The notes under the pieces: generated by a model | Database searches by the model: none | What the model saw: only the letters and a program-made list of their open reading frames with translations | Told to the model about the DNA's origin: nothing | From: Candidatus Paceibacter sp. | GTDB lineage: Bacteria; Patescibacteriota; Minisyncoccia; UBA6257; 02-FULL-45-10c | DNA: 64,000 nt | Reading direction: 5' to 3' | Assembly: GCA_020724845.1 (NCBI GenBank) | Contig: DYGE01000002.1 | Coordinates: forward strand, 35,961 to 99,960 | Made by a program: the position numbers and the translations under genes | Shown: positions 1 through 60,003 of the stretch, piece by piece | Position numbering within the stretch: position 1 is the stretch's first letter | Layout of the letters: each line of letters starts with the position of its first letter

Positions 1-838
1 AAAATATATTGTGAGGGTTACCGGCGACTATGCCTGGGAGCAGGGCGTTCAAAGGTTTGGGGTGAATGATCTACTCGATGACTTTCAAGATAAAAAATAC
101 GGCCTTTTTGTTGAGTTTTTGCGGAAGTGCCAAAGATTTTCAGTAAGTTCGGCAGATGTTGTTATTTCGCCGAGTAAATATCTAAAAAAAATAGCTTCCG
201 GATGGGGTATTGATGCGAATAAAATCCAAGTAATTTACAATTCCTCGGAATTGCCGGATGGCAAAATGACTAAACAGGAAGCTCGAGAGAGGCTGGGTCT
301 TGGCGGGAATATTTTATTATCGGCCGGCAGATTGGTCCCTTGGAAAGGTTTTGGCTTGTTGATTGAGATTCTGCCGAGGCTTTTGGGAGAATATCCGGAT
401 TTAAGGTTGGTAATTTTAGGCGACGGCCCTGAGCGCGCAGCGCTTGAGTTAAAAGCCAAAAACCTGAAGCTTGAAGCTAATGTATCATTTACCGGCAAGC
501 TGCCAAAGGCGGAGCTGCTGCAATATTTGGCTGCTGCTGATGTATTCGCCCTGAATACGGCTTATGAAGGATTTTCTCATCAGATCATTGAAGCAATGAG
601 TTTTGGCTTGCCTGTGATTACGACGAGAGTCGGCGGGAATCCGGAAATCGTCAGAGATGGTGAGAGCGGATTCTTAGGAAGTTATAATGACCCTGTTTTT
701 TTCAGAGATTCTATTAGGAAAATCTTGGCGGATGCCGGCTCTAGATCCAAGCTTGGAGAGGGCGCCAGAGCGGCCGCGGACAGGTTTTCAAAAGAAAGAA
801 TGCTCAAGGAATTAAGCGAACTACTGAACTCTTTATGA
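1..838 (+). CDS. Glycosyltransferase family 1 (GT4-like), C-terminal part; 5' end truncated by window edge
   Basis: ORF 11..838 is open to the window start. It carries the GT1 C-terminal signature (EAMSFGLPVITTRVGGNPEIVRDGESGFL). Confidence 0.75.
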   Translation, partial: KYIVRVTGDYAWEQGVQRFGVNDLLDDFQDKKYGLFVEFLRKCQRFSVSSADVVISPSKYLKKIASGWGIDANKIQVIYNSSELPDGKMTKQEARERLGLGGNILLSAGRLVPWKGFGLLIEILPRLLGEYPDLRLVILGDGPERAALELKAKNLKLEANVSFTGKLPKAELLQYLAAADVFALNTAYEGFSHQIIEAMSFGLPVITTRVGGNPEIVRDGESGFLGSYNDPVFFRDSIRKILADAGSRSKLGEGARAAADRFSKERMLKELSELLNSL

Positions 839-3084
839 TTAAGGTTTTAATGCTCTCTACTGACCAAAAGATTTTGGAGAAAGGGTCGGCGGCGCAAAAA
901 AGAATGTTGGAATATGGAGAGCTCTTTAAAGAGCTGCATATTGTTGTCTTTACGACGCAACCTACAACTGACAACCTACAACTAACAACTAATACCTGGG
1001 TTTACCCAACCAATACAAAATGGAAGCCGCTTTATTTTAGGGATGCCTATAAAATTGGAAAAGATATCTTGAGCGGTTCGCATGATTCGGATAAGAGTTC
1101 GGGTAATTCGGATTATGCAATTACTACGCAGGACCCATTTGAAACCGGCTTAATCGGCTGGCTGCTTAAAGCGAAATTTGGTCTTCCGTTGCAGCTGCAA
1201 ATTCATACTGATATCTTCAGCCCGTATTTTAGGCAGGAATCTTTGAAAAACAGGATTCGCGTACTACTGGCAAGGTTTTTGTTGCCTCGCGCAGATGGCA
1301 TCCGTGTTGTCTCTGAACGTATCAAACAATCTCTCATATCCCGTGTCTCATATCCCGCATCTCATATCTCTGTTTTGCCGATCTCTGTTGATGTCAAAAA
1401 AATCCGAAACAAAAAAGTTAAAACCGATTTGCGGCAAAAATATCCGGACCGTGATTTTATAATCCTGATGGCTTCCCGCCTGACTAAAGAAAAAAATATC
1501 GGTTTAGCAATTGACGCCATGAAGGAATTGCTAAGCGCTAAACGCTTAACGCTAACTCCTTTGCTCCTCATTGTTGGCGATGGCCCGGAGCGCAGTAATC
1601 TGGAGTCAAGAATTAAGAATTATGAATTATGGGACAGCGTAAAAATAGAGAATTGGACCGATGATCTTGCTTCATATTATAAAACTGCCGATATATTTTT
1701 GCTTACTTCTAATTATGAGGGATATGGCCGTACCGCGATTGAAGCGATGGCAGCTGGTTTGCCGGTAATAATGACGGACGTCGGCCTTGCCGGGGAGTTG
1801 CTGGTTGACGATTTGGATGGGGCGGTGGTTCCGGTGGGCGACAAAAAAGCGCTGGCGGAATCAATTTCAAGGCTGGCTAATAATAAAGAAGTTACAGAAG
1901 GCTTTATAAAGGAGTCGGAAAAGCTCATCAACTCTTTGCCGGAAAAAAGCGAATATCTTGCTTCATATAAGGAATCTTTAGAAATACTGGCTTCTTCGCA
2001 AAAAGCGAAATTATGTTATGTTTTGCCGAAATATGATCCTAATGACAGCACTCACTTTTCTTACTTGCGTGATTTTTTGAAGGAAATTTCCAAATCGTTT
2101 GATATATTTTTAGTTGTGGAAAAAGGAGAAATCCCTCCAGCCGACTTAGGTTACCGAAAAGCAAAAATCTCTCGAATCAGCCTTTGGCCGATTTTGCGGG
2201 CCAGGTTTTCCGGATACAGAGATTTCTATATCCATTATTCGTTTCGGGCAGCCTTTTGGGCTTCGTTGGTGGTGAGAATTTTTGGGGGCAGGGTATTTTA
2301 TTGGAATTGCGGAGAGCCTTGGAAATATCGCAGGAATTTTTTGCGGGAACTATTTGAGGACAGCGCGTACCATTTGATTACTTTTTTAGTGACTGGAACG
2401 GAATCATTGGCAAAACAATATGCCAATTATTATAAAATCCCGCTTGGGAAAATTAAGATTATGTCGAATTGGATCAACTTAGATCGAATTATGAATCAAG
2501 AATCAAGAATCAAGAAAGAGGAATTAGGGATTAAAGAGGGGACGAAAATTTTGCTTTTTGCGCACCGGCTATCAAAAAGAAAGGGGGCGCATTACTTGCC
2601 GGAAATCGCGAAAAATCTGAATCCCATTATTCATGATTCGTTATTCGTGATTCTTGTAGTCGGAGACGGCCCCGAGCGCGAGGAAATAGAATTAAGAATT
2701 AAGAATTATGAATTAGGGAATAAAGTTCGATTTTTGGGATCTATACCTAATCATCGGTTGCCCGGATATTATTCGCTTGCTGACGTATTTATAATGCCTT
2801 CCGACGAGGAGGGATTCCCGCACGTTTTATTGGAATCCATGGCTGCTGGCACGCCTTTCGTTGCCAGCGACGTCGGCAGCGTTAAAGAAATCATTCCTGA
2901 AGCGATGCAAAAATATGCGGTAAAAGCAGGAGATGTCCTTGGTTTTTCGGATAAAATAAATGAGTTGTTGTTGAAATCTCCGAAAGAGCTGGAGCATCTT
3001 GGCGAGTCATTAAAAGATTGGGTGAAACGTTATGATCTGCCGATTGTGGCTAGAAAATTCACAAATCTAATCAATAATGGCTAG
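835..3084 (+). CDS. Tandem (duplicated) glycosyltransferase family 1 protein, two GT-B modules in one 749-aa polypeptide
   Basis: Two separate GT1 C-terminal cores: ..IVGDGPERSNLESRIKNYELWDSV..EGYGRTAIEAMAAGLPVIMTD.. and ..VVGDGPEREEIELRIKNYELGNKV..EGFPHVLLESMAAGTPFVASD... Start overlaps the stop of the upstream GT. The gene also contains several short in-gene tandem repeats. Confidence 0.75.
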   Translation: MIKVLMLSTDQKILEKGSAAQKRMLEYGELFKELHIVVFTTQPTTDNLQLTTNTWVYPTNTKWKPLYFRDAYKIGKDILSGSHDSDKSSGNSDYAITTQDPFETGLIGWLLKAKFGLPLQLQIHTDIFSPYFRQESLKNRIRVLLARFLLPRADGIRVVSERIKQSLISRVSYPASHISVLPISVDVKKIRNKKVKTDLRQKYPDRDFIILMASRLTKEKNIGLAIDAMKELLSAKRLTLTPLLLIVGDGPERSNLESRIKNYELWDSVKIENWTDDLASYYKTADIFLLTSNYEGYGRTAIEAMAAGLPVIMTDVGLAGELLVDDLDGAVVPVGDKKALAESISRLANNKEVTEGFIKESEKLINSLPEKSEYLASYKESLEILASSQKAKLCYVLPKYDPNDSTHFSYLRDFLKEISKSFDIFLVVEKGEIPPADLGYRKAKISRISLWPILRARFSGYRDFYIHYSFRAAFWASLVVRIFGGRVFYWNCGEPWKYRRNFLRELFEDSAYHLITFLVTGTESLAKQYANYYKIPLGKIKIMSNWINLDRIMNQESRIKKEELGIKEGTKILLFAHRLSKRKGAHYLPEIAKNLNPIIHDSLFVILVVGDGPEREEIELRIKNYELGNKVRFLGSIPNHRLPGYYSLADVFIMPSDEEGFPHVLLESMAAGTPFVASDVGSVKEIIPEAMQKYAVKAGDVLGFSDKINELLLKSPKELEHLGESLKDWVKRYDLPIVARKFTNLINNG

Positions 3085-7769: not shown

Positions 7770-8783
7770 ATGGAACAACGGCCAAAAAAAGCGCTTATTA
7801 CCGGAGTTACTGGTCAGGACGGCTCTTACATGGCCGATCTTTTGTTATCTAAAGGATATGAAGTGCACGGTTTGGTAAGGCGATCCTCTACTTTCAATAC
7901 CGAGAGGATTGACCATCTTTATGGAGGAACGGTTCAGGAAGCAAAGGGCAGGTTTTTTATGCATTACGGCGACCTGACTGACACTAATTCTCTGATTCAG
8001 ATATTAAGCAAAGTTAATCCGGATGAAGTATATCATTTCGGGGCGCAGAGCCATGTCAGGATCAGCTTTGATATTCCGGAGTCAACAGCTCAAACCACCG
8101 GGATTTCAACTCTGAAAATTCTGGAGGCCTTGCGCATCGTTAACCCGAAAGCGAAATTCTATCAGGCGTCTTCCAGCGAGATGTTCGGAAAGATTCAAGA
8201 GAACCCGCAAACCGAGAAGACCCCCTTCTATCCGCGCAGCCCCTATGGGGTTTCTAAGGTGTTTGCTTATTGGATGGCGGTTAATTACCGCGAGGCTTAT
8301 GGCATGTTTGCCTGCAACGGCATTCTTTTCAATCATGAATCTCCGAGGCGCGGAGAGAATTTCGTCACCAGGAAAATAACTACCGGCTTAGCCAAGATTC
8401 TTGCCGGCAAGCAGAAAAAAATTTATTTGGGAAATCTTGACGCGAAAAGAGACTGGGGTTACGCGCCGGAGTATGTGGAGGCGGCTTGGCGCATGCTTCA
8501 GCAGGAGCGGCCGGATGATTACGTGGTTGCCACCGGCGAAACCCGCACGATTAAGGAGTTTGTCGAAGAGTCTTTCCGTTTCGCTGGAATTAATGACTGG
8601 GAAAATTATATTGAGATTGATCCTCGCTACTATCGGCCAACGGAGGTTGATGTGCTTATCGGCGATGCTTCCAAGGCCAAAGAAAAACTGGGCTGGGAGC
8701 CGAAGACTAAATTCAAAGATTTGGTGAAGATTATGGTCAAGGCGGATTGCGAAAAACACGGGGTTCAATTAAAAGAAGTATAA
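7770..8783 (+). CDS. gmd: GDP-mannose 4,6-dehydratase
   Basis: [45 protein letters not shown] is a near-canonical GMD N-terminus. Length 337 aa with a YxxxK SDR core. Confidence 0.92.
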
Positions 8784-8826
8784 AAATTTTTTGTAAACGA
8801 CGATAGGGTATATTTGTACTTAAGAG

Positions 8827-8966
8827 CGGGTAGATGTCCTCTGTGCGGCAACTACGGAGCGCCAGATTGCTTGGTTGTCCATCGGACAAATTTGGCGTGA
8901 GGCGTAGGCGGCGTCAATCGCAGGAATTGGCGAACGCCGGTGCCGGTAAGAGGATATCTGCCCGCT
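8827..8966 (+). repeat. Structured palindrome-bounded repeat, copy B (forward core)
   Basis: Outer arms gcgggtagatgtcctct / agaggatatctgcccgc pair with G-U wobbles. The core CTCTGTGCGGCAACT.ACGGA...GGTGCCGGTAAGAG is shared with the copies at 10201, 12697, 32378 and 59814. Confidence 0.85.
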
Positions 8967-8985
8967 TCTAACTTGGAGAAATACT

Positions 8986-10194
8986 ATGAAAAAAATTAAC
9001 TATCAGATTGGCGTCGGTTGCGCCGATATCACTCAAAAAGAAAAAAGCTATGTAATGGACGTTCTCAACAAAGAACGTCTTTCGCACGGCCCTTACAGCC
9101 AAAAATTTGAAAAATCCTTTGCCAAGGCCCACGGCTGCAAATACGGCCTTTTCGTAAATAGCGGAACCGGCGCGCTCCGTATTGCTGTTGCCGCCCTGAA
9201 AGAAGCGGAAGGATGGAAGGATGGCGACGAGGTGCTTTGCCCAGCGGTTACTTTTGTCGCCTCCTCCAATGTGATTATCATGAACGGCCTAAAGCCGGTT
9301 TTTGTGGATGTGGACAGCCGAACCTATAACATTGACCCGCGTGAGATAGAAAAGCATATTACTCCGAAAACTAAGGCAATAATGGTGGTTAATCTATTCG
9401 GCCAGCCGGCCGACATGGAGCCGATGTTGAAAATCGCCCGCAAGTATAAATTAAAAGTTATTGAAGATTCTTGCGAGACTATGTTCGTGAAATATAAGGG
9501 CAAGCCGGTCGGCTCATTCGGGGATATCAGCTGTTTTTCCACTTATGTCGCTCATCTTTTGGTTACTGGCGTTGGCGGTTTAGCGTGCACTAATAATCAA
9601 AAATATGCGGAAATTATGAAGAGCTTGGCTAATCATGGCCGGGATAACATTTATTTACATATTGATGATGATAAAAATCTAAGCCGGCGCCGGCTTGCTC
9701 AATTGGTGTCGCGAAGATTTAATTTTATCCGCCTTGGTTACAGCTTTAGGGCGACGGAAATGGAGGCAGCTCTCGGGTTGGCCCAGATGGAAAGGAAGGA
9801 TAAAATTTTAAAAGCTCGCAAGAAGAATGCCGGATATTTAATTAACAAACTGAAACCGCTTGAAAAATACCTTCAGCTGCCATGGCATCCTAAATACGCG
9901 GAACATTCTTTTATGATGTTCCCGATAGTGGTTAAGAAAGATTCAGGAATCCGTAAGGCCGATTTGGTAATGCATCTGGAAAACTATAACGTTGAAACCA
10001 GGGACATGCTTCCGCTTTTGAATCAGCCGATTTACAAAAAGCTCTTTGGAAATCTTGAGAACCGATATCCGGTTGCCAAATGGGTCAATGACAATGGCTT
10101 TTACATCGGCTGCCACCAAAAGCTTTCCAAGAAAGAACTGGATTATATCGTAGCGGTATTTAAAGACTTTTTTGATAGTAGAAAAATTATTTAG
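8986..10194 (+). CDS. DegT/DnrJ/EryC1 family PLP enzyme of the His-variant (ColD/E1-like) subgroup; likely NDP-4-keto-6-deoxyhexose 3-dehydratase
   Basis: Sugar-aminotransferase fold (..GLFVNSGTGALRIAVAAL..), but the Schiff-base lysine position reads FSTYVAHLLVTGVGG, i.e. His not Lys, as in ColD. It lies directly downstream of gmd. Confidence 0.6.
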   Translation: MKKINYQIGVGCADITQKEKSYVMDVLNKERLSHGPYSQKFEKSFAKAHGCKYGLFVNSGTGALRIAVAALKEAEGWKDGDEVLCPAVTFVASSNVIIMNGLKPVFVDVDSRTYNIDPREIEKHITPKTKAIMVVNLFGQPADMEPMLKIARKYKLKVIEDSCETMFVKYKGKPVGSFGDISCFSTYVAHLLVTGVGGLACTNNQKYAEIMKSLANHGRDNIYLHIDDDKNLSRRRLAQLVSRRFNFIRLGYSFRATEMEAALGLAQMERKDKILKARKKNAGYLINKLKPLEKYLQLPWHPKYAEHSFMMFPIVVKKDSGIRKADLVMHLENYNVETRDMLPLLNQPIYKKLFGNLENRYPVAKWVNDNGFYIGCHQKLSKKELDYIVAVFKDFFDSRKII

Positions 10195-10200
10195 ACACAG

Positions 10201-10446
10201 GAAATCAGAAAGAGTATTTTCTTTAGACTCGGGCTGCGCGGTGGGGACAAAGTGTCATAACCAGAAAGTATCCTCTTACCGGCACCAGCGTTCGCTGATT
10301 CCTGCGATCAGCGCCGCTTACGTCTCATCCTGATTTTCGCAAGCGAACCGAGCAAATCAGGATTCCGTCAGTTGCCGCACAGAGGATACTTTCTGGTTAT
10401 GTTTATCAGGTGGAGGCGGTCTAAAGAAAATACTCTTTCTGATTTC
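10201..10446. repeat. Composite repeat, copy A: perfect 28-bp outer TIR, perfect 18-bp inner IR, and the conserved core in reverse orientation
   Basis: 10201-10228 gaaatcagaaagagtattttctttagac is the exact reverse complement of 10419-10446. The inner IR is aaccagaaagtatcctct (10259-10276) versus agaggatactttctggtt (10381-10398). The core between them is the reverse complement of the copy D/E core. Confidence 0.9.
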
Positions 10447-10475
10447 TAAATTCGTTTATATAATAAAAAGTACTT

Positions 10476-11705
10476 ATGAAACCTCTCAAAATAGCTTTTA
10501 TTATTCGCAGGTTGAATGTTAAGGGGGGTACCCAGCGGCAGGCCCTTTCCTTAGTTAGGGAGCTAAGAAAACGCGGCCATATCGTTAAGGCCTACACCTT
10601 TTTGTATTCTCCGGAAAATTGCTATCCGGATTTGTTAGAGGGATTGGAGGTGGTTTCTCTGGAGCGCGGCACCAGCGCCAAGTTTTTCAAAGCCATTCCG
10701 TTAATTCGCCACTTAGAGCAGGTTTTTAATGAGAATCGGCTGGCTAAAAAATTGGCGCTTAAAATGGACAAAGATTTTGACGTTCTGAATCCGCACGACC
10801 AGGTCAGCTACAAAGTCGCTTACTACTATAAAAAGCGGGTTAAGAAAGCCCCTTCGGTTTGGCATATGAATGATTTGCCTCTGCTTCGCTGGGGGTACGA
10901 TAAAATGCGCGGCGTTGACGATGATTTTCAACAATCTGTCATAAAGCGGATTTTCTATTATCTTTTTGATCTTTATGAAATCAAAAAGTTTCTACGCCAT
11001 CAGGACAAAATCATAGTCGTGGATAATTTTAATGTCGGGTTGGTTAAAGATTATATGGGTCTTGAGGCGGAAACCGTCCGCAGCGGGCCGGACATAGAAC
11101 ATTTTACCTATACAGCCAGGAAGCACCCAGGCAAGGACATCAAAATTTTGACCAGCGGCATTTTGATGCCGCACAGGAGATATCAAGATACTATTTCAGC
11201 CGTGGGTATATTAGCCGGCTGGGGCTATAATCCGATGCTCACGATTTTGGGCGCTTACCAAGACAGTGATCCGTATTATAAAAAACTCACCCGCTTGGTG
11301 GGTGAGTTGGGTTTAGAAAATAGAGTGTCTTTCGTCGGCAGAGTAACGGAAAAGGAGCTGCTTCGGGTCTATGCCGAAAACGATGTTTACATTTTTCAGC
11401 ACCACCTCCAGTCCGATGGCCTGTCTCCATTCGAAGCGGCCGTCTCCGGCCTTCCGGTTGTAATCTCCAGAACTGCCGGGTCTCATGAAACCTTGACCGA
11501 TCACGAGAATGCTCTTTTGATTAATCCGAAAGATCCGGAAGATATCGCTGGGCGGATTAAGGAGTTGGCTGACAATCCGGAGTTGTATTTGAAGCTAAGT
11601 AAATCCGGGGCAGAGTTCGTGAAAAACAATTTTTCCTGGGAGAAGTATGCCGATGGCGTTCTGAAAGAATTTCAGTCCGCGCTTTCGGATTACAGTTCGG
11701 GATAA
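10476..11705 (+). CDS. Glycosyltransferase family 1
   Basis: GT1 C-terminal core SPFEAAVSGLPVVISRTAGSHETLTDHENALLINP. Length 409 aa. Confidence 0.75.
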   Translation: MKPLKIAFIIRRLNVKGGTQRQALSLVRELRKRGHIVKAYTFLYSPENCYPDLLEGLEVVSLERGTSAKFFKAIPLIRHLEQVFNENRLAKKLALKMDKDFDVLNPHDQVSYKVAYYYKKRVKKAPSVWHMNDLPLLRWGYDKMRGVDDDFQQSVIKRIFYYLFDLYEIKKFLRHQDKIIVVDNFNVGLVKDYMGLEAETVRSGPDIEHFTYTARKHPGKDIKILTSGILMPHRRYQDTISAVGILAGWGYNPMLTILGAYQDSDPYYKKLTRLVGELGLENRVSFVGRVTEKELLRVYAENDVYIFQHHLQSDGLSPFEAAVSGLPVVISRTAGSHETLTDHENALLINPKDPEDIAGRIKELADNPELYLKLSKSGAEFVKNNFSWEKYADGVLKEFQSALSDYSSG

Positions 11706-12589
11706 TAAGTCTCTAGGTATTCCCGCAGGGCGTATCGCCAATCGCGCAACGCCGGCAATTTGGCGCTTTTTAATACATTAGATGGCGCTCTTGGAACTTT
11801 AAAAAATTCGCCTTGAGAAACTAATCGGATTTTCAATTTTTCAGCCGGGCGGCCAAGATATTCCGAAACCGCTTTTATGACATCCAGGGTGGTAGCTTCG
11901 CCGGCGGACGTTTGGTTAACAATGTGATAGATTCCGCTTTCTGATTTTCCGAATATCAGCTTTGCTAGTTCATGGGCAAAGTCCTGGACATTAGTAGGCG
12001 ATCGCCACTGATCGCTTATCGCGACTATCTCATCCCCCTTTTGTATATCGGCAAGAAACTGTTCAACGAAGGTTTTTCTTCCCGGCCCATAAAGCCAGCC
12101 GGTGCGGGCAATGATCCATTTCGGAAATATTTCCGGGTATTTTTCGCCAAGTCCTTTTACGATATCCTCCGCCTCTTTCTTTGATTTTTGATAAACGGTT
12201 ATCGGGCGCGGCTGGTCATCTTCGGTGTAGCCCTCAATTTTGCAATTTTCCCGGGTTCTGCCGAAAACCTCCGAGGTGCTTATTTGTACGAAGGTGGCGG
12301 GTTTCCCGATCTGTGCCAGCGCTTCCATCAAGTTTTTGGCCCCGTCTCGGTTGACCGCGTAGCATTGCTCCGGGTTTTCTTCGCAAAAATCCACCTTCAG
12401 GATAGCGGCGCAGTTGATTACCGCATCAGGAAGGATTTCCCTGAATCGCCTCTCAATCTTCTCCTTGTCGGTAATTTCTAAATCCCGATGCATTAAAGCA
12501 TGGATTTCCAGCTTGGGATCTTGTCTGAAATATTCAGTTAATGCCTGGCCGACTAGTCCGCCGGCCCCAACAATTGCCACCTTTTTCAT
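11690..12589 (-). CDS. RmlD-like NAD(P)-dependent nucleotide-sugar 4-keto reductase (SDR)
   Basis: MKKVAIVGAGGLVGQAL Rossmann N-terminus. ..DAVINCAAILKVDFCEENPEQCYAVN.. and ..FVQISTSEVFG.. mirror the RmlD substrate-binding domain. It is the only minus-strand gene in this stretch and sits next to gmd and the ColD-like gene. Confidence 0.65.
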   Translation of the reverse strand: MKKVAIVGAGGLVGQALTEYFRQDPKLEIHALMHRDLEITDKEKIERRFREILPDAVINCAAILKVDFCEENPEQCYAVNRDGAKNLMEALAQIGKPATFVQISTSEVFGRTRENCKIEGYTEDDQPRPITVYQKSKKEAEDIVKGLGEKYPEIFPKWIIARTGWLYGPGRKTFVEQFLADIQKGDEIVAISDQWRSPTNVQDFAHELAKLIFGKSESGIYHIVNQTSAGEATTLDVIKAVSEYLGRPAEKLKIRLVSQGEFFKVPRAPSNVLKSAKLPALRDWRYALREYLETYYPEL

Positions 12590-12696
12590 ATTGTTTCCTT
12601 TTTGGCTGTTCTGAAGTTATACTATACGTCAATATAACAGCGATTTCAAGGACAAATTCAAAACTTCTCATCCTAAATATTTTTTGTAGCGCCTGA

Positions 12697-12906
12697 CACA
12701 GGAAAGCACCCTCTGTGCGGCAACTGACGGAATCCTGATTAGCTTGGATTCCGTAAGGAATAATCAGGATGAGTCGTAAGCGGAATTATCACCCCGTGTT
12801 GGAAGGTAGGCCGCTATGCTATAGCATAGCGGTCGTCGGAAACCTGAAGGTGTTCGAGATGGGGGTCGGGGTGAGAATCTGGGACGGTAAGAGGGTGCTT
12901 TCCTGT
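12697..12906 (+). repeat. Structured repeat, copy C: perfect 18-bp bounding IR, extra internal hairpin insertion
   Basis: cacaggaaagcaccctct (12697-12714) is the exact reverse complement of agagggtgctttcctgtg (12889-12906). The conserved 5' core is CTCTGTGCGGCAACTGACGGAATCCTGATT. The 3' part is replaced or expanded by a segment containing the perfect hairpin ccgctatgctatagcatagcgg. Confidence 0.85.
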
Positions 12907-12917
12907 GCAGCTAATAT

Positions 12918-14292
12918 GCCTAAAAAAATATTTCTAAACCTCTATTCAACCATGACCTTCCGAAACTTCGTCGTTTTTCCTGACGGCGTAGTTTCCAAAT
13001 TAGCCGACAATCCGGATATTAAACTGCATGTTTTGATACCTAAGGGCTCTAATTTCCGGGAGCTCTTGAGCCGTTATCCGTTTGGCAAAAAACTGGAAGT
13101 CATAGAAGTCAATACTAAAATGCCAAAGCTTAATCCGGCGCAAAAGCTTTTTTATTTTTTCTATTCCTACTTGATTTTTACCGGCACCACTCGTCTGCTT
13201 GCGACTTTCGGCGCTCGCGCTGACGCTCCTCCGGCCGGCGGCAACCGCTTTTTTGCCCCCCTTAAAAGCGCTATCGCCAATATTTTTGGCAGGTCTAAAT
13301 GGATTAAAACCTCATTCGTTCCTTGGGCGTACAAGAAGCTATTTTCCCGAAAAGAGCTGGCTGATATTTTTGACCGGTATCAGCCGGACTTTGTGTTCTT
13401 ATCCGGCATTGCCGCTTTTGAAGATGTTGAATTGCTTGCCGAGGCACAACGAAGGAAAATCAAGACTATGGGCATGCCAATGAATTGGGATCATTTAAAT
13501 AAATATTACATTCCGCTCCATCCGGACCGCCTATTGATCCAAAATCAGCCAATGAAAAAAGAAGCAGAGGAATACCATGCCTATAAGGAGAGCCAAATTC
13601 AAATGGTCGGCTTTCCCCAGTTTGATTTTTATATTACCGGAAAAGAACATCTTCGCCCGCGCGCTGAATTTATGAAAAAATACGGCTTATCGCCGAATTC
13701 CAAATTAATCCTTTTTATTTCCGGCAGCGTTTACGCTTCCGGCGAACAGGAAATTCTAAAGGAAATGCGCCAATGGGCCAAGGATGGTAAACTGGGGCAA
13801 GAAGTCGGTTTTATGGTTAGGCCCTATCCTAACAGAGCGGATATTGCCAAATACAAAGAATTGGAAAAGTTGCCGGAGATGAAATTTTTCTGGGAAGATA
13901 CCACGACTGATTTAGAGAATATTATAGAATTTATGAATATTCTTTATCATTCGGATATCGTTATATCAATATTTTCTACTACCGCGATTGAAGCGGCAAT
14001 TTTTGATAAGCCGACTATTACCCTTGGCTTTGACGGCCGGGAGAAAAAGCCGGAACACCAGTCGGTTGCCCGGTTGGAGAAGCTCTCCCACTTCAAGCAT
14101 GTTCTTGACACGGGCGGCGTCAGGGTAGCGCGCGGTTTTTCTGATTTATTGGAATTTATAGCAATGTACTTGGAATCTCCTGAAGAAGACAAAGAAAAGC
14201 GGGATTTTCTTTCCGAAAAGATGGCTTATAAAGTCGACGGCAAAGCGTCAGGGCGAGTGGCGGAGGCAATAGTTGCTTATCTTAATGAATAA
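12918..14292 (+). CDS. TagF-like (Glyphos_transf-like) GT-B transferase, paralog 1 of 4
   Basis: The C-terminus SDIVISIFSTTAIEAAIFDKPTITLGFDG is shared with the paralogs at 17665, 26290 and 30021. The ORF-track start at 12769 lies inside the repeat element, so the ATG at 12918 (MPKKIFLN) is preferred. Confidence 0.55.
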
Positions 14293-20799: not shown

Positions 20800-21867
20800 A
20801 TGGGAAATTTCAAAAATAAGGTCAAAATAGGCGATAGATATGTGGGCGAGGGTGAGCCGACCTATTTTATTGCAGAAATAGGGAATAATCATAATGGTGA
20901 TTACTATTTAGCGAAGAGAACTATTGAGGAGGCTGTTAAGGCTGGCGCGGACGCGGTGAAATTTCAGAAACGTTTTATTGACCAGACTTTTGCCAAGGAG
21001 TTGAGGGAGAAGCCTCAGACAAAGGACCAGGTTTTGGGGAAAACTTATGGAGAATACAGGCAGGCTCTGGAGTTGTCTCTAGATGAATTCAAAAAACTGA
21101 AAAAAGTTGCTCAAGATTTAGGTACTACTTTTTTTGCCACGCCTTTTGACAAAAAGAGCGTGGATTTCCTGGAAGAAGTAGGGGTGGACGTATACAAGAT
21201 TGCATCTTTTGACGCTACTAATCTTCCATTATTAGAATATGTCGCAAAGAAGGGGAAGCCCATGATTCTTTCAACTGGTATGACCTCTCTAGAGGAATTG
21301 GATGAGGCGGTTAAAACGATTGCGCCGCTAAACAACCAACTCGTCATCCTGCATTGCGTTTCTGTGTATCCTACTACAGACGAGAGATTAAATCTCGCAA
21401 CTATACCATTTTTAAGAGAAAGGTATAAACCGATTCCTATTGGGTATTCCGGACATGAAAGGGATTACGCGCCTACCCTTGCGGCTATAGCATTAGGCGC
21501 TAAGTGCGTTGAAAGGCATATCACTCTTGATAAATCTTTGCCTGGGCCGGATCATGCTACAGTCAGCATAGACCATTTAGAATTTAAGCAAATGGTAGAC
21601 GAGGCAAGGAGGATAGAGACTGCGCTTGGTAAGCCAGGAAAACATCTTTTTGAAGAAGAGATGAAGACTAGAGAGAAGCATAGCAAGAGCATAGTTTCCA
21701 AAGTTAAAATTTCTGCCGGTACGCCTATTACTGCCGATATGGTGATCTGCAAAAGCCCTGGTTATGGCCTTAAGCCAAGGAGGTTGCCGGAAGTTATCGG
21801 AAAAAAATTGAAGAAAGATGTTGAGGAGGATACTGTCTTGACGGAGGACCACATTTTATGGGCCTAA
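20800..21867 (+). CDS. neuB: N-acetylneuraminate (nonulosonate) synthase, NeuB family with C-terminal SAF domain
   Basis: YFIAEIGNNHNGDYYLAKRTIEEAVKAGADAVKFQ is the NeuB signature. ..ILHCVSVYPT.. and an antifreeze-like/SAF C-terminus are present. Confidence 0.9.
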   Translation: MGNFKNKVKIGDRYVGEGEPTYFIAEIGNNHNGDYYLAKRTIEEAVKAGADAVKFQKRFIDQTFAKELREKPQTKDQVLGKTYGEYRQALELSLDEFKKLKKVAQDLGTTFFATPFDKKSVDFLEEVGVDVYKIASFDATNLPLLEYVAKKGKPMILSTGMTSLEELDEAVKTIAPLNNQLVILHCVSVYPTTDERLNLATIPFLRERYKPIPIGYSGHERDYAPTLAAIALGAKCVERHITLDKSLPGPDHATVSIDHLEFKQMVDEARRIETALGKPGKHLFEEEMKTREKHSKSIVSKVKISAGTPITADMVICKSPGYGLKPRRLPEVIGKKLKKDVEEDTVLTEDHILWA

Positions 21868-32377: not shown

Positions 32378-32523
32378 GAATACCAAAGCACCCTCTGTGC
32401 GGCAACTGACGGAATCCTGATTTGCTTGGTTCGCTTGCGAAAATCAGGATGAGACGTAAGCGGCGCTGATCGCAGGAATCAGCGAACGCTGGTGCCGGTA
32501 AGAGGGTGCTTTGGTGTTTATTC
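32378..32523 (+). repeat. Structured repeat, copy D (forward core)
   Basis: gaataccaaagcaccctct ... agagggtgctttggtgtttattc bounding IR. The core is identical to copy E and is the reverse complement of copy A's core. Confidence 0.9.
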
Positions 32524-32659
32524 TATAAATACACTTCCCGTGAAACTGAAATAGGGCGATTTTAGTTGTATATAAAGAGCGGCCTCGATAGCTTGCTCTA
32601 TTTATTAAAATACTGCAGAATAACAAGGCAATTTTATCCCGTTAGAGCTAACCACCATT

Positions 32660-35575: not shown

Positions 35576-36719
35576 TTCTCAAGAGATTTGGAAGAAAATC
35601 AGTTCGCCGGTCAGCGAAGGCGTTTTTATTATTGCCGAAATTGGAAAGAATTTTATCCAGACCCGGGATGAGCGGCCGGTTGAGGAATACTTGGAGAACG
35701 CCAAGAAATTGGTTGATGAGGCCGCGAAAGCGGGCGCGGACGCGGTTAAGTTTCAAACTCACAATGTTGAGGATGAACAGCTCAATATCAACGTCACCTC
35801 TCCGCACTTTAAGGGCAGCGACCGCTATAATTGGGTGGCTAGAAACACCGGGGCTACTCCAGTGGAAGGCTTCTGGAAGCCCCTGAAAGAGCATTGCGAA
35901 AAACGAGGGATTGTTTTCTTTTCCACGCCGATGAGCCGGGGATCGGCAAAAATTTTAAACGAACAAATTGGCGTTAGTCTTTGGAAAATCGGATCCGGAG
36001 ATATTTTAGATTTTGTGATGCTGGATTATCTTAGGAATACCGGCAAGCCGATTATTCTTTCTTCCGGCATGAGCACTCTGGAAGAGGTGGAGAAAACGGT
36101 AAAATTCCTGCGGGAGAAAAACAATCAGATTGTTCTTCTTCATTGTGTTTCAAAATATCCCTGCCCGCCTGAAGATTTGCATCTGCGCACCATTGATTTT
36201 TATAAAGAAAAATTTGACATGCCGATTGGTTTTTCAGACCATTCGATCGGCGTTGATTCGGCTTTGGTGGCGGTGGCAATGGGCGCCACGGTGATTGAAA
36301 AGCATTTCTCTCTTTCCCGTGACCTATGGGGTTCTGACCACAAAGTTTCGCTGACTCCCGAAGAGCTGGCCGATCTGGTGGCGGGCGTCCGGGAATTGGA
36401 AAATAATCCGCGAAAAAGGCAAGAATTGTTGAATAGCGATTTCGCGAAAAGAGGCATGGGCCAAAAAGAGAAGGTGCTTCAGGAGGGGGAGGCGGCTTTT
36501 CGTCCGCTGTTCAGGAAATCCCTGATGGCCGGCCAAGACATTTCTGCCGGGACGGTTCTTGCGGAGGAAATGATATATGCCATGCGTCCCCAGCAATACG
36601 CCGGCGGGTTGCCGTCGGAAAATTACGAATCCGTTCTTGGGAAAAAAACTAAGCAAGATTTAAAAAAATACGACCCGATTACTGAACTAACGCTTAGGAG
36701 AACAGAATACGAACTCTGA
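35562..36719 (+). CDS. neuB: Second NeuB-family nonulosonate synthase with SAF domain
   Basis: FIIAEIGKNFIQTRDERPVEEYLENAKKLVDEAAKAGADAVKFQTH, ..LLHCVSKYPCP.. and a SAF-like C-terminus; 385 aa. A paralog of 20800..21867. Confidence 0.85.
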   Translation: MAQDNSQEIWKKISSPVSEGVFIIAEIGKNFIQTRDERPVEEYLENAKKLVDEAAKAGADAVKFQTHNVEDEQLNINVTSPHFKGSDRYNWVARNTGATPVEGFWKPLKEHCEKRGIVFFSTPMSRGSAKILNEQIGVSLWKIGSGDILDFVMLDYLRNTGKPIILSSGMSTLEEVEKTVKFLREKNNQIVLLHCVSKYPCPPEDLHLRTIDFYKEKFDMPIGFSDHSIGVDSALVAVAMGATVIEKHFSLSRDLWGSDHKVSLTPEELADLVAGVRELENNPRKRQELLNSDFAKRGMGQKEKVLQEGEAAFRPLFRKSLMAGQDISAGTVLAEEMIYAMRPQQYAGGLPSENYESVLGKKTKQDLKKYDPITELTLRRTEYEL

Positions 36720-37025
36720 TTGAGTTTAGAAGCAAGAATTTGAGTTAAGTTTGCGAAGCGACGAGGAGATCGCGCCCATAGGCGCCTCTCCGAGAAGCGA
36801 CAAAGAAATTAACCAAATTCTTGCTTCCCTCCGGGTGAGTCAAAAAGACATCATTTTCTTCGTTAATCGTCGCTTATGTATCTAAAGATACACTACGCTC
36901 CTCTTGCCTTGAAACTGACATCTTTTTGACTCACTAAATCTAATCAAGGTTCGTATTCTGCTCTCCTAGTTACATTTGACCATTGGCGTAAGTTGTATAA
37001 AATGTAGTAATTACACACCATCATT

Positions 37026-44942: not shown

Positions 44943-44989
44943 GTCCGAAGATAGGACTTTCTTACAATCCTTAATTTTACTTAGCCTAA

Positions 44990-45035
44990 CCTATCCCCAC
45001 TTATTCCCGCGTACGCGGGAATAAGTGGGGATAGG
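44990..45035. repeat. 46-bp perfect palindrome (hairpin) downstream of trxB, member of a 2-copy palindrome family
   Basis: cctatccccacttattcccgcgtacgcgggaataagtggggatagg is exactly self-complementary. Its core is related to the palindrome at 45632. Confidence 0.85.
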
Positions 45036-45048
45036 AAAGGTCAATTAT

Positions 45049-45609
45049 ATGCGGCAAAAAATTGGAACAATTCAAAAGAAAATTTTACTGCTTTTACTTT
45101 TGATTCCGGCAACCGGCTTAGCTTATTCGCCTCGTCAGCGAGCAAAGATATTCCGAAAATTTGGAGAAGAATGGGATAAGATCAACGAGACCGCGCTTAG
45201 CCGAGCGATTAAAGGTTTATATGAAAACAGGATGATAGATTTTCAAGAACATAAAAGTGGAAAGATTAGGATTACTCTACTTAACGATGGGAAAAAGAAG
45301 GCGTTAGAATATGATTTGGAAAATTTAGCGTTGAAAAAACCTAAGCGCTGGGACGGAAAGTGGAGAATGATATTATTTGATATTCCTAATACCAAGAGTA
45401 AGGCGAGAGAAGCGATCCGCTATCATTTGAAGAGATTGGGTTTCTATCGATATCAGAAGAGCATATTCGTGCACCCTTACCCATGCAGGGACGAACTTGA
45501 TTTTGTGATTGAATTATACGGAATAAGGCTGCATGTGCGTTATATAGTCGCCGAGGAAATAGACAACGATATTCATCTTAGGAAAGTATTCAGAGCTTTA
45601 ATAGCTTAA
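45049..45609 (+). CDS. PaaX-family transcriptional regulator, short form
   Basis: N-terminal wHTH-like region and the PaaX-diagnostic ..RWDGKWRMILFDIP.. (compare E. coli PaaX AWDGKWLLLL). The ORF-track start at 45025 lies inside the palindrome, so the ATG at 45049 is preferred. Confidence 0.55.
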   Translation: MRQKIGTIQKKILLLLLLIPATGLAYSPRQRAKIFRKFGEEWDKINETALSRAIKGLYENRMIDFQEHKSGKIRITLLNDGKKKALEYDLENLALKKPKRWDGKWRMILFDIPNTKSKAREAIRYHLKRLGFYRYQKSIFVHPYPCRDELDFVIELYGIRLHVRYIVAEEIDNDIHLRKVFRALIA

Positions 45610-45631
45610 TTTAATGTTTATATCGAACAAA

Positions 45632-45681
45632 AAACATCCCTACCTATTCCTGCGTACGCAGGAATAGGTAGGGATGTTTTA
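45632..45681 (+). terminator. 50-bp perfect palindrome ending in a T-run; likely intrinsic terminator of the PaaX-like gene and second member of the palindrome family
   Basis: aaaacatccctacctattcctgcgtacgcaggaataggtagggatgtttt. It shares the core tattcc(c/t)gcgtacgc(g/a)ggaata with 44990..45035, with a compensatory c:g to t:a change. Confidence 0.6.
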
Positions 45682-46375: not shown

Positions 46376-49300
46376 ATGAGGAAAATAGTAATTCTATCCA
46401 TTTTAATATTTCCTCTGAATGTCTTTGCTTACAGCGTGGGGACTCACGCTTTTTTAACTCAAGAACTGGTTGAATTTTATAATCAGCAATTTCCAGAGCG
46501 GCAGATCCCGGAAGAATTTGAAGATGAAATCATTGAGGGCTCTAGAAGAGAAGACGACTTAGTCCGTTGGATGAATCATTTTTATGACCCGGTCAACAAC
46601 CGCGGGCTTACCGCCGTTCCAGGTAATTGGCTTAGTTCTAAAGAGTGGTCCAGGAGCGCGGATGAGCAGGTTTCCGCTTTGTATAACCCGATTGTCAACA
46701 CCACTATCGCGGATTTACTGGCGGTTACTAATCCGATGGCTTTGCGTGAGACGGATTTCACTTGGGAGCGGGCCATTCAGGATTACGTCAAAGGGGACAG
46801 GGAAAGGGCCTTTCGCGCCCTCGGCCAAGTGCTTCATTTGATTGAAGACGCTTCGGTGCCGGACCACACCCGCAATGATCCGCACCCGGCTTTTGACGAC
46901 CACGACGCCTTGGGCACGGGGAGTCCCTACGAAATTTGGACTAAGAATTTTAATTTGAGCAGTCCGGATAATAATTTGCCGAACCGGCTTTCCGGTAAAA
47001 AACCGGTAATGCTTGGAAATCTGGAAGAATACTTTGATGGCCTGGCGACTTATTCCAATAATAATTTCTACAGTAAAGACACTATTGGTATGGGTGAATA
47101 TTCCTCTCCAGAGCCAACGTATATTTGGAGAGAAGAAAAAATATTCTATGGTTTTAGGAAGGATGAAGATGGTAATTATTACCATTTAGTTAGTTATAAA
47201 AATGATCCCAAAGATGTTTTATGGGCACAAAAGGGAAACTTAGATTTAAGAGATAAGCAGGGCGATAGAGTGCTAAACGACTACTGGAACCGTCTTTCGG
47301 TGAAATCCATCCAATATGGAGCAGGAGTTGTCAATTTATTTTTTAAAGAGGTTGAAAAAGCCCAAAAAGATCCTAATTTTGTAATTGAGGAACCGAAATC
47401 TTTATTTGCTCAAGCGGTAGAGGTTGTGGGCGGGTTTTTCAAAAATTTATTTCAGAATAATCAGGAAGAAGATTCCGGACTCAATTTGGTCGCAGAGATT
47501 GATTTGAACGATCAGGAAAATTCAGCTTCGCCGGAGAGGAGCGATAACCTTGCGCGGCCAGATGATCTTGTTGAAGAGCTTGTATCAGAGGAAGCCCTCG
47601 CCGATGAGCCAGAGGCGCAAGAATCGGAAGAAGCGTTAGACGAGGAATTGGAAGAGGCGCCAGAAGATGTTAATCAAGAAACTTTGGAGTTGGAAGAAGG
47701 GGCAGAAGCTGAAGAGGTCTTAGATCCGCCAACTCAAGAAAATTCAGCTGATAATTTTCAGGTATGCACTTTCGCGACTAGTCAATCCGCCAGCAGAAAT
47801 AAATTACTCATAAATGAAGTTGCCTGGGCCGGCACCGCCGAAAGCTCTTCAAATGAATGGATTGAGTTAAAAAATATTTCCGGCGGCGAGCTGGACATTT
47901 CCAACTGGCAGCTGCTGGATGAGGCTGAACAGATTAAGGTGACTTTCCCGTCTGGCACGAAAGTGGCGAGCGGGGGTTTTGTTCTCCTTGAAAGGACGGA
48001 TGATAATTCAGTCCCAGGCGTGGCGGCGGATATTATTTATACCGGAGCGCTTTCCAATAGCAACGAAGGCCTGCGCCTTTTTGATCCTAGCTGTCAGCTT
48101 ATTGACGAAGTTTCGGCAGATTCATCCTGGCCGGCCGGAGATAGCAGTACCAGGAGGACGATGGAGCGCTCTGCTGATCTAACCTGGCACACTTATAATG
48201 GCAGCGGCGAGAGCGGAATTTTTGGGACCCCGAAGAAAGAAAACAGCCAGTTGCCGACTACCAGCGGAGGATCTCCGTCTCCGGCGGAGAACGCGCAAGC
48301 GAGCGCCAATTTGAATATTCTTATCTCGGAAGCGCAAATAACCGGATCCGGCGGATCAAAAGACGAGTTTGTGGAATTATACAATCCCAACTCGGCTTCG
48401 GTAGATTTGACCGGCTGGTACGTAAAAAGGAAAAGCTCCAGCGGCAACGAATACAGCTTGGTTTCCGCCGGCAATCTTTCCGGGAAAACTATCCCGGCCA
48501 AGGGTTATTTCTTGCTGGCCCATCCGGATTACAGCGGTTCTGTCGCCGCTGATGTTACCTGGCCGTCTTCCTACGCGGTCTCGGCGGACAACACGGTCAT
48601 TTTATATAAATCAGACGGTTCGGTGTCCGATAAATTAGGATTCGGTTCGGCCGCCGACTATGAAACCAGCCCGTATTCGGATAATCCCGCTTCCGGCCAA
48701 ACGCTTTCCAGGGAATCTGAAAACGACACCGATAATAACGCCGCTGATTTTGAGCTGACCACGCCTTCTCCGAAAAATTCCAGCACTTCTGGCGGATTTC
48801 TCGCCATTCAGGCGGAAGCTGATTCTTCCAATCCGGCCAATCACCCGGTTATCAGCGAATTGTTTATCAATATGGCCGGTTCGGACGACCAAGAATTTAT
48901 TGAGATTTATAATCCGACCAGCCAGCAGGTTAGTTTGTCCGGATGGTCCCTGCAATACTTGAGCGGGGGAGCCAGCACTATGGCGCAAATCGCCAAGAAA
49001 AATTTTACTGACGGCGCCAGCGTCCAGCCGTTAAGTTACTATCTGATTGGAGTCGGTGGTTACAGCAGCAGTACTGCGGCCGACATGACTTGGAGCCAAT
49101 CATTGAATAACACCGGCGCCACGGTGTTTTTGGTTGCCAGTTCCTCCGGGCTGGCGTCCTTTGATAGCGATGAGATTATAGATAAAGTCGCCTACGGTTC
49201 CGCTTCCGGCGGGGAATTGCGCTCGGAAGGCGCCGCGGCTCTATTGCCGCCGGAAGGGCAGAGTTTAGAGCGAAAAGCTAATACTGATAATTCTTGCTTA

Positions 49301-59799: not shown

Positions 59800-59813
59800 G
59801 ATTTTGGCGTTAT

Positions 59814-60003
59814 AACCAGAAAGTATCCTCTGTGCGGCAACTGACGGAATCCTGATTTGCTTGGTTCGCTTGCGAAAATCAGGATGAGACGTAAGCGGCG
59901 CTGATCGCAGGAATCAGCGAACGCTGGTGCCGGTAAGAGGATACTTTCTGGTTATGTTTATCAGGTGGAGGCGGTCTGAAGAGATAGTATTCAGGGTATT
60001 TCT
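59814..60003 (+). repeat. Structured repeat, copy E (forward core, left outer arm missing)
   Basis: The inner IR aaccagaaagtatcctct / agaggatactttctggtt is the same as in copy A, but the core is in the opposite orientation. The right flank atgtttatcaggtggaggcggtct(g/a)aag is shared with copy A. Confidence 0.9.

Follow-up and report, generated by a model that had tools for sequence, protein, structure and literature searches.

Among the described systems closest to the element reported here are the invertible switches, such as fimS of Escherichia coli, hin of Salmonella, the polysaccharide-promoter invertons of Bacteroides and the R64 shufflon, with which it has in common short perfect inverted repeats, a segment of ~100 bp and a position in a polysaccharide locus. 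Polysaccharide clusters are a classic context of invertible promoters in Bacteroides. The element differs from such switches in that its repeats are not common to all copies, that no recombinase is found nearby and that it holds neither a promoter nor a coding end; in addition, the second orientation was not seen at the same locus, and the repeats are covarying helices. Small inversions associated with hairpins in plastid non-coding DNA were reportedly described by Kelchner and Wendel in 1996. In plastid hairpin inversions the sequence enclosed by perfect stem arms changes direction without the help of a dedicated recombinase, leaving no scar and giving fixed differences between lineages or loci, a parallel to the rearrangement considered below (PMC12371153); the plastid loops are 4-50 bp long, whereas here the segment concerned is a structured core of 104 nt from a bacterial repeat, for which deletion between copies or gene conversion are equally possible routes.

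Repeat families such as REP/REPIN, ERIC, the Correia elements of Neisseria and BOX/RUP are likewise multi-copy, intergenic, present in either orientation and rich in long hairpins, and their copies homogenise or recombine. These families keep their sequence, especially at the termini, whereas in the element described here termini and stems are hypervariable and the junction and loop nucleotides are near-invariant, as in functional RNAs; unlike REP-type repeats, it also showed no target-site duplications and no associated transposase. By analogy only, bacterial twister and hammerhead ribozymes resemble it in having an invariant junction among covarying helices and several copies per genome, in unrelated contexts and in both orientations, but no match to any Rfam ribozyme model was obtained at E<=10 and the hammerhead core was absent by eye. 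An architectural analogy, again nothing more, can be drawn with the RNase III stems that flank rRNAs, in that locus-specific and near-perfect duplexes, here of 17-28 bp, surround a conserved structured RNA; the element differs in that it has one stem nested inside another, separated by conserved C-rich linkers.

The element was studied in a 64,000-nucleotide stretch of a Candidatus Paceibacter genome (contig DYGE01000002.1), referred to hereafter as the window. A sequence-only reading of the window had proposed that the conserved core of a repeat at 10201-10446 sits between nested perfect inverted repeats and forms a possible invertible segment. The repeats themselves were confirmed. The outer one is exact over its 28 bp (Table 1), had no further occurrence at <=3 mismatches and was found 0 times in 100 shuffles. 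The inner one, consisting of aaccagaaagtatcctct and agaggatactttctggtt, is exact over 18 bp; including an adjoining 'at' its arms grow to 20 bp, and they bracket 104 nt. The same arms are present at a second locus, copy E (59814-59831 and 59936-59953), as had been claimed, and 10256-10400 and 59812-59956 are 99% reverse-complementary over 145 nt. The flank to the right, GTTTATCAGGTGGAGGCGGTCT, occurs only at 10401-10422 and 59956-59977, on the plus strand in both cases, with 0 occurrences expected by chance. Since this flank has the same strand at both loci and the cores are reverse-complementary, the 104-nt core is truly reversed relative to the flank, in agreement with the opposite orientations that the earlier reading had noted. 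What stood of the proposed inversion is a rearrangement via palindromic arms, which is the best explanation of the difference; the suggested kinship with fim, hin or shufflon-type programmed switches found no support. We put at roughly 70% the probability that 10201-10446 holds an entire copy, on the minus strand, of a structured element present in several copies, and that copy E is the product of one past recombination at palindromic arms, with no ongoing switch driven by a recombinase.

Comparison of the copies gave the inverted repeats of copy A a structural identity: the inner repeat corresponds to helix P1 and the outer one to helix P0, and the flank common to copies A and E is the reverse complement of the 5' linker of the element. 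Read 5' to 3', a full element consists of a P0 arm, the 5' linker CGCCTCCAC..ATAAA, the unit P1-core-P1', the 3' linker ..CCC(C)ACCGC(G)CAGCCCGA and the second P0 arm. Both linkers are C-rich and in RNA form read CGCCUCCAC..AUAAA (5') and CCCACCGC.CAGCCCGA (3'). The core belongs to a multi-helix junction of ~130 nt with the nearly invariant strands GUGCGGCAACU(G)ACGGA, GAGnCGUArGCGG and CGnYA, among which the helices P1, P2 and P3 are free to vary in sequence as long as pairing is kept. Its parts are a GUG/NYA internal loop, P1b (CGGCA/UGCCG), P2a, a P2b-P2c hairpin with a GCUNGG loop, P3a and a P3b hairpin with a CGCWGGA loop. For the whole of copy A the predicted fold had a free energy of -120.5 kcal/mol (z = -13.6). 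Full elements were found in copies A and F and on the contigs L001, L003 and L013, representing at least two genomes and having the linkers in common; P0 is locus-specific and near-perfect in all of them (28 bp in A, 21-26 bp in the other four).

Table 1. Parts of copy A and location of all copies of the element in and next to the window; strand refers to the RNA-like strand, and scores are from the covariance model.
Feature	Position	Strand	Remarks
Copy A, full element	10201-10446	-	core 151.9 bits (minus strand) vs 32.6 bits (plus strand)
Copy A, helix P0, 5' arm (right outer repeat of the sequence-only reading)	10419-10446	-	28 bp, exact inverted repeat of 10201-10228
Copy A, conserved 5' linker (right-hand flank of the sequence-only reading)	10399-10418	-	RNA strand CGCCTCCACCTGATAAACAT; block common to F, L001, L003 and L013
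Copy A, helix P1, 5' arm	10381-10398	-	RNA strand AACCAGAAAGTATCCTCT; P1 paired in 17/17 aligned copies
Copy A, core	10277-10380	-	supported by covariance model and covariation
Copy A, helix P1, 3' arm	10259-10276	-	exact complement of 10381-10398
Copy A, conserved 3' linker	10229-10258	-	RNA strand ATGACACTTTGTCCCCACCGCGCAGCCCGA; block CCC..ACCGC(G)CAGCCCGA common to F, L001, L003 and L013
Copy A, helix P0, 3' arm (left outer repeat of the sequence-only reading)	10201-10228	-	pairs with 10419-10446
Copy B, core-only	8826-8965	+	151.3 bits; own P1 sequence with two G·U pairs
Copy C, core-only	12697-12907	+	96.7 bits; larger branched insertion in place of P3
Copy D, core-only	32382-32515	+	149.5 bits; core 96-97% identical to A and E; P1 like that of C
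Copy E, P1, core and P1'	59814-59953	+	155.3 bits; core inverted with respect to the linker remnant to its right
Copy E, 5' linker remnant	59954-59977	-	identical to the linker of A over 24 nt; strand opposite to the core of E
Copy F, full element	L015:4085-4362, about 30-310 nt past the window end	-	JGI contig from the same population

Five copies (A-E) lie within the window and a sixth (F) just past its end, so that about 85 kb hold six small copies, all of them intergenic and in mixed orientation; no more were found in ~17 kb of further sequence of the source genome. Copy F has the P1 and the linkers of copy A and differs from it in P0 (26 bp), P2 and P3; an extra GC-rich hairpin is inserted in its 3' linker, and its P2 is interrupted by an N-gap in the JGI scaffold. 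A pattern search with the junction strands identified relatives in a Candidatus Harrisonbacteria MAG, a Patescibacteria MAG and 11 contigs from groundwater metagenomes; besides these eleven contigs, the metagenome search returned one false match (L006). The motif was not found in viral contigs (two patterns), PLSDB plasmids or INPHARED phages (blastn). Contig L001 carries a second, decayed copy, which only the covariance model detected. Linkers are absent from the core-only copies, represented by B, C and D in the window and by L002, L005, L007-L012 and L014 elsewhere. The opposite arrangement, a linker without a core as a possible empty target, was sought in the window and none was found. To the right of copy D, the sequence at 32516-32540 (TGTTTATTC...) resembles the reverse complement of the end of the 5' linker of copy F (..AATAAACA), and copy D may be a second, more decayed arrangement of the kind seen in copy E, although the match comprises only 8 nt in AT-rich DNA and is possibly due to chance.

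The case for a structured RNA was based on an alignment of 17 sequences and on scores of a covariance model (R1). RNAalifold predicted 44 pairs, with compensatory changes in 33 of them. In a 50-pair structure to which P3a had been added, 96.3% of the cells were paired, compared with 32-39% when the partners were slid by 1-3 columns, and double changes, affecting both sides, were present in 35 of the 50 pairs. The covariation score was 0.641 vs a maximum of 0.134 in the controls, and was reached by none of 500 shuffles. In P1, changes on both sides were observed in 18 of 19 pairs, while P3a is G-C in 12 sequences, A-U in four and unpaired in one. The sequence of the outer stem differs between B, C/D and A/E and is always paired, the internal hairpins change by paired substitutions, and the three junction strands are constant. 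As these strands served as the search pattern, some of their invariance among the loci retrieved follows from the search itself; the copies found by the model only (F and the second copy of L001) vary slightly in them.

Wobble pairs were distributed one-sidedly, with 44 G·U vs 7 A·C, and the copies in the window scored 97-155 bits on one strand vs 9.5-33 bits on the other with the covariance model. The large excess of G·U over A·C, together with model scores far higher on one strand than on the other, indicates that the structure is selected on one strand, in copy A the minus strand. From the covariation and the G·U asymmetry we infer that the element acts as RNA, a pattern that a specific single DNA strand could in principle also give. 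A search of the whole window against Rfam 15 gave no match at the gathering score, and lowering the threshold to E<=10 for 8700-13000 and L014:12230-12440 returned only noise; tRNA and tmRNA scans gave no match either. No described RNA motif or repeat of this kind from Patescibacteria or the CPR was found in a literature search. Judged by its sequences, the family is thus RNA-like with very strong covariation, has no match in Rfam 15 and is present in other Patescibacteria.

The asymmetric order of the full element allows the two orientations to be polarised. In all five full elements the linker stands 5' of the core, and copy E is the sole exception; copy A is therefore the canonical form and copy E the rearranged one. 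Copy E has its core on the plus strand and its only linker remnant on the minus strand. To the left of it there is no 3' linker and no second P0 arm, and the stop codon of rpiB is located 14 nt from P1; beyond the linker remnant on the right lies a diverged remnant of a P0 arm. Its P1 is identical to that of copy A. Recombination at the palindromic P1 arms best explains this arrangement. A single past event at the perfectly palindromic 20-bp arms could have followed one of three routes, namely (i) an intramolecular, hairpin-mediated inversion, for which the small hairpin-associated inversions of plastid DNA offer a precedent (PMC12371153), (ii) a deletion, via identical P1' arms, that joined a core-only copy in sense orientation immediately behind rpiB to a full antisense copy next to it, or (iii) ectopic gene conversion in flipped register. 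Because P1 is a perfect palindrome, each of these would yield the exact structure of copy E; the product is the same and free of scars in all cases, and the routes are indistinguishable here. Route (ii) would in one step also account for the missing left linker and left P0 arm.

Several other accounts of the difference between copies A and E were weighed against recombination at the P1 arms. A programmed switch, in which a site-specific recombinase encoded elsewhere would flip the 104-bp segment between the 18-20 bp repeats and bring about phase variation of the RNA or of the neighbouring polysaccharide genes, agrees with the perfect inverted repeats around a short segment, with opposite core orientations relative to a common flank at two loci and with the setting in a polysaccharide-biosynthesis cluster. 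The arms are at odds with it, as they differ between B, C/D, A/E/F and other genomes around a conserved interior, the reverse of what is expected of recombinase sites, and covary like RNA helices, G·U pairs (two in copy B) included. What differs, moreover, is two loci and not two states of one locus. Of the 54 listed ORFs of the window with at least 120 aa, 52 were scanned against Pfam; they included no recombinase, integrase, resolvase, invertase or transposase, which bears out the earlier statement that no invertase gene lies in the window, and no sigma-70-like site was found on either strand of the core (10277-10380), with the proviso that the promoters of this lineage may not conform to the sigma-70 consensus. 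In other assemblies, contigs end at the element, which might be taken to reflect a switch, but these breaks are explained by 31-mers common to A, E and F. Every available assembly junction has the orientation of the window: the left junction of E in two other assemblies, JGI 3300029893 and Logan SRR5011275, and its right junction as well as the whole of A in JGI, the only assembly informative there. The JGI contigs that terminate or begin within E match the window at both junctions, and a Logan contig extends 10 nt beyond P1 into the core of E with no branch; the Logan contig to the right of E starts inside P1' and carries no orientation information. By these signs, taken from consensus contigs in which a minority orientation may be hidden, nothing indicates that the flip of E is programmed or still under way, and we regard a recombinase-driven switch as very improbable. 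The same junctions bear on the suspicion that the orientation or sequence of the core was mis-joined at A or E, near-identical 130-nt repeats being apt to confuse short-read assemblers. JGI and Logan contigs do end inside or at the repeats, and the window and JGI disagree only inside copy A, where the window has the allele of D and E; yet the junctions from unique flank to core need reads that span just 20 nt of P1, the left junction of E is identical in JGI and Logan and the right one is confirmed by JGI, copy A has the same orientation in the JGI contig, and an A-specific SNP (gctCgg) was kept in both assemblies. An assembly artefact is hence scarcely credible as the source of the flip.

Rather improbable, on balance, is also that P1-core-P1' is a small mobile DNA that inserts either way round and prefers sites beside the linker, copy E being an independent insertion. 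Such a module would be in keeping with the frequent core-only copies without linkers, with near-identical cores at unrelated loci and with mixed orientation relative to genes, the neighbours being housekeeping genes of all kinds. Against this, neither conserved terminal repeats nor target-site duplications occur at the P1 boundaries, no transposase was detected among the Pfam-scanned ORFs of the window, and the window holds no linker lacking a core. The linker of E, identical to that of A over 24 nt, and its identical P1 point to shared descent with A. Insertion irrespective of orientation would not be expected to leave the orientation fixed in all five other linker-bearing copies. The earlier reading had named independent insertions of a whole palindromic element as the scenario that would undo an inversion; this fits poorly, because the common flank is the element's own conserved 5' linker, which stands 5' of the core in those same five copies. 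Recombination at the palindromic P1 arms thus remains the preferred explanation of copy E.

Further signs of exchange between copies were found in the distribution of sequence modules, which is mosaic: copies A, E and F have one and the same P1, copies C and D have similar P1 sequences, and the P2/P3 part of the core is near-identical in A, D and E and different in F. Apart from a scaffold gap, a 21-kb comparison of the JGI contig with the window showed 16 differences, all of them within 10287-10331 (L021:4617-4661). They are located in the P3 hairpin of copy A and the adjoining strand, and the hairpin is kept in both alleles, that of the window being the allele of D and E. The difference in P3 of copy A is either a real gene conversion, strain heterogeneity or the result of repeat collapse during assembly, and the 99% identity between A and E could in part stem from recent gene conversion or assembly repeat collapse. 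Whether the copies truly exchange segments or are confused with one another by assemblers, both possibilities suggest that the repeats are substrates of recombination. The element may spread or homogenise between loci by recombination.

The genes of the window are predicted by Pfam scans to encode functions in the biosynthesis of polysaccharide or teichoic-acid-like polymers and in the pentose-phosphate pathway, with copy E in the spacer between rpiB and a His_Phos_1 gene. The neighbours of the copies of the element are unrelated to one another and include cysS, corA, groEL, hrcA/grpE, rpsP, ksgA and an xerC-like gene. Several copies are situated just downstream of intrinsic terminators. Mixed orientation, unrelated neighbours and terminators upstream together argue against a classical cis-regulatory leader; an independent small RNA and a proliferating structured repeat both fit the context. 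Promoter-like sites upstream of copy A occurred at chance frequency, as did promoters and terminators counted around the elements. The terminators, made up of a GC-rich hairpin and a T-run, were observed 8-30 nt upstream on the RNA strand at L003:9130-9180, L013:4460-4500, L011:130-175 and L014:12190-12240. Across several subfamilies that otherwise differ, a TATAAA-like box is present 0-8 nt 5' of P1, at L001:755-775, L002:751-772, L011:190-200, L005:2195-2215 and, on the minus strand of the window, 10399-10410; the box may act as a -10 promoter element, with the RNA beginning inside P1, or may belong to the RNA itself.

In our working model, the invariant junction and loops (GCUNGG and CGCWGGA) would make up a catalytic core or a binding site for a conserved partner. 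The perfect stems P1 and P0 (17-28 bp) would be substrates for a double-strand-specific RNase, by which the RNA might be released from longer transcripts. More speculatively, the C-rich linkers (CCUCCAC and CCCACC) may be exposed strands that could pair with G-rich, Shine-Dalgarno-like sequences. The boldest reading of the data, which we consider unlikely as a whole, is that the element constitutes a new class of functional RNA from Patescibacteria, a catalytic or protein-binding scaffold released from long stems, the modules of which are actively exchanged and occasionally flipped by recombination at palindromic helices; the flipped copy E and the P3 polymorphism of copy A would then be snapshots of a cassette shuffling of RNA genes.

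To our knowledge, the non-coding RNA content of Patescibacteria has been little studied. If transcribed, the family is a candidate for tests of self-cleavage, of RNase III processing and of protein or ligand binding, and its mosaic copies lend themselves, on a small scale, to the study of recombination and gene conversion between structured repeats in nature. For inverton mining, the element shows that the helices of structured repeats imitate the inverton signature and that palindromic stems can give rise to flipped copies without a recombinase.

A number of known element types were compared with the family and rejected. Its small size, multi-copy and intergenic nature and occurrence in either orientation would fit a MITE, but the termini (P1 and P0) are hypervariable and there are no direct repeats at the boundaries. 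Inspection of the P1 and P0 ends revealed none of the GTTRRRY boxes of integron attC sites, and the conservation of the interior with variable stem bases is the reverse of the pattern in attC. No adjacent reverse transcriptase is present, as would be required of a retron ncRNA, no conserved hairpin sequence of the IS200/IS605 or REP kind was found, and there is no adenine-specific variation as in DGRs. A resemblance to hammerhead, twister, twister-sister, hatchet, c-di-GMP, cobalamin and Moco RNAs and to J11/12 of RNase P was considered as well; none of their cores matched, and Rfam agrees.

Other repeats in and features near the window were recorded alongside the element. The direct repeats at 1562-1632 and 2648-2718 are an internal duplication in a two-domain GT4 glycosyltransferase (835-3084), and those at 20911-20966 and 35700-35755 belong to two NeuB paralogues, an ordinary duplication; both are unrelated to the element. 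The spacer between neuB and a UDP-glucose dehydrogenase gene contains another, unrelated nested-repeat element (36695-36968), in which an imperfect outer stem of 35 bp surrounds two long hairpins; its RNA fold had a free energy of -115.5 kcal/mol (z = -10.3), and it has no Rfam match. Long perfect or near-perfect palindromes with the common centre ATTCCyGCGTACGCrGGAAT are located at 44978-45047 and 45631-45680, where they flank a small gene with a PaaX central (Cas2-like) domain (45025-45609), the former overlapping its called GTG start; possible explanations are pairs of operators or terminators, or a further repeat family. A protein of 1570 aa with three lamin-tail domains is encoded at 46376-51088. 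Downstream of the window, L023:7592-14071 carries a cluster of genes for PAS histidine kinases, response regulators and an autoinducer-synthase-like acetyltransferase.
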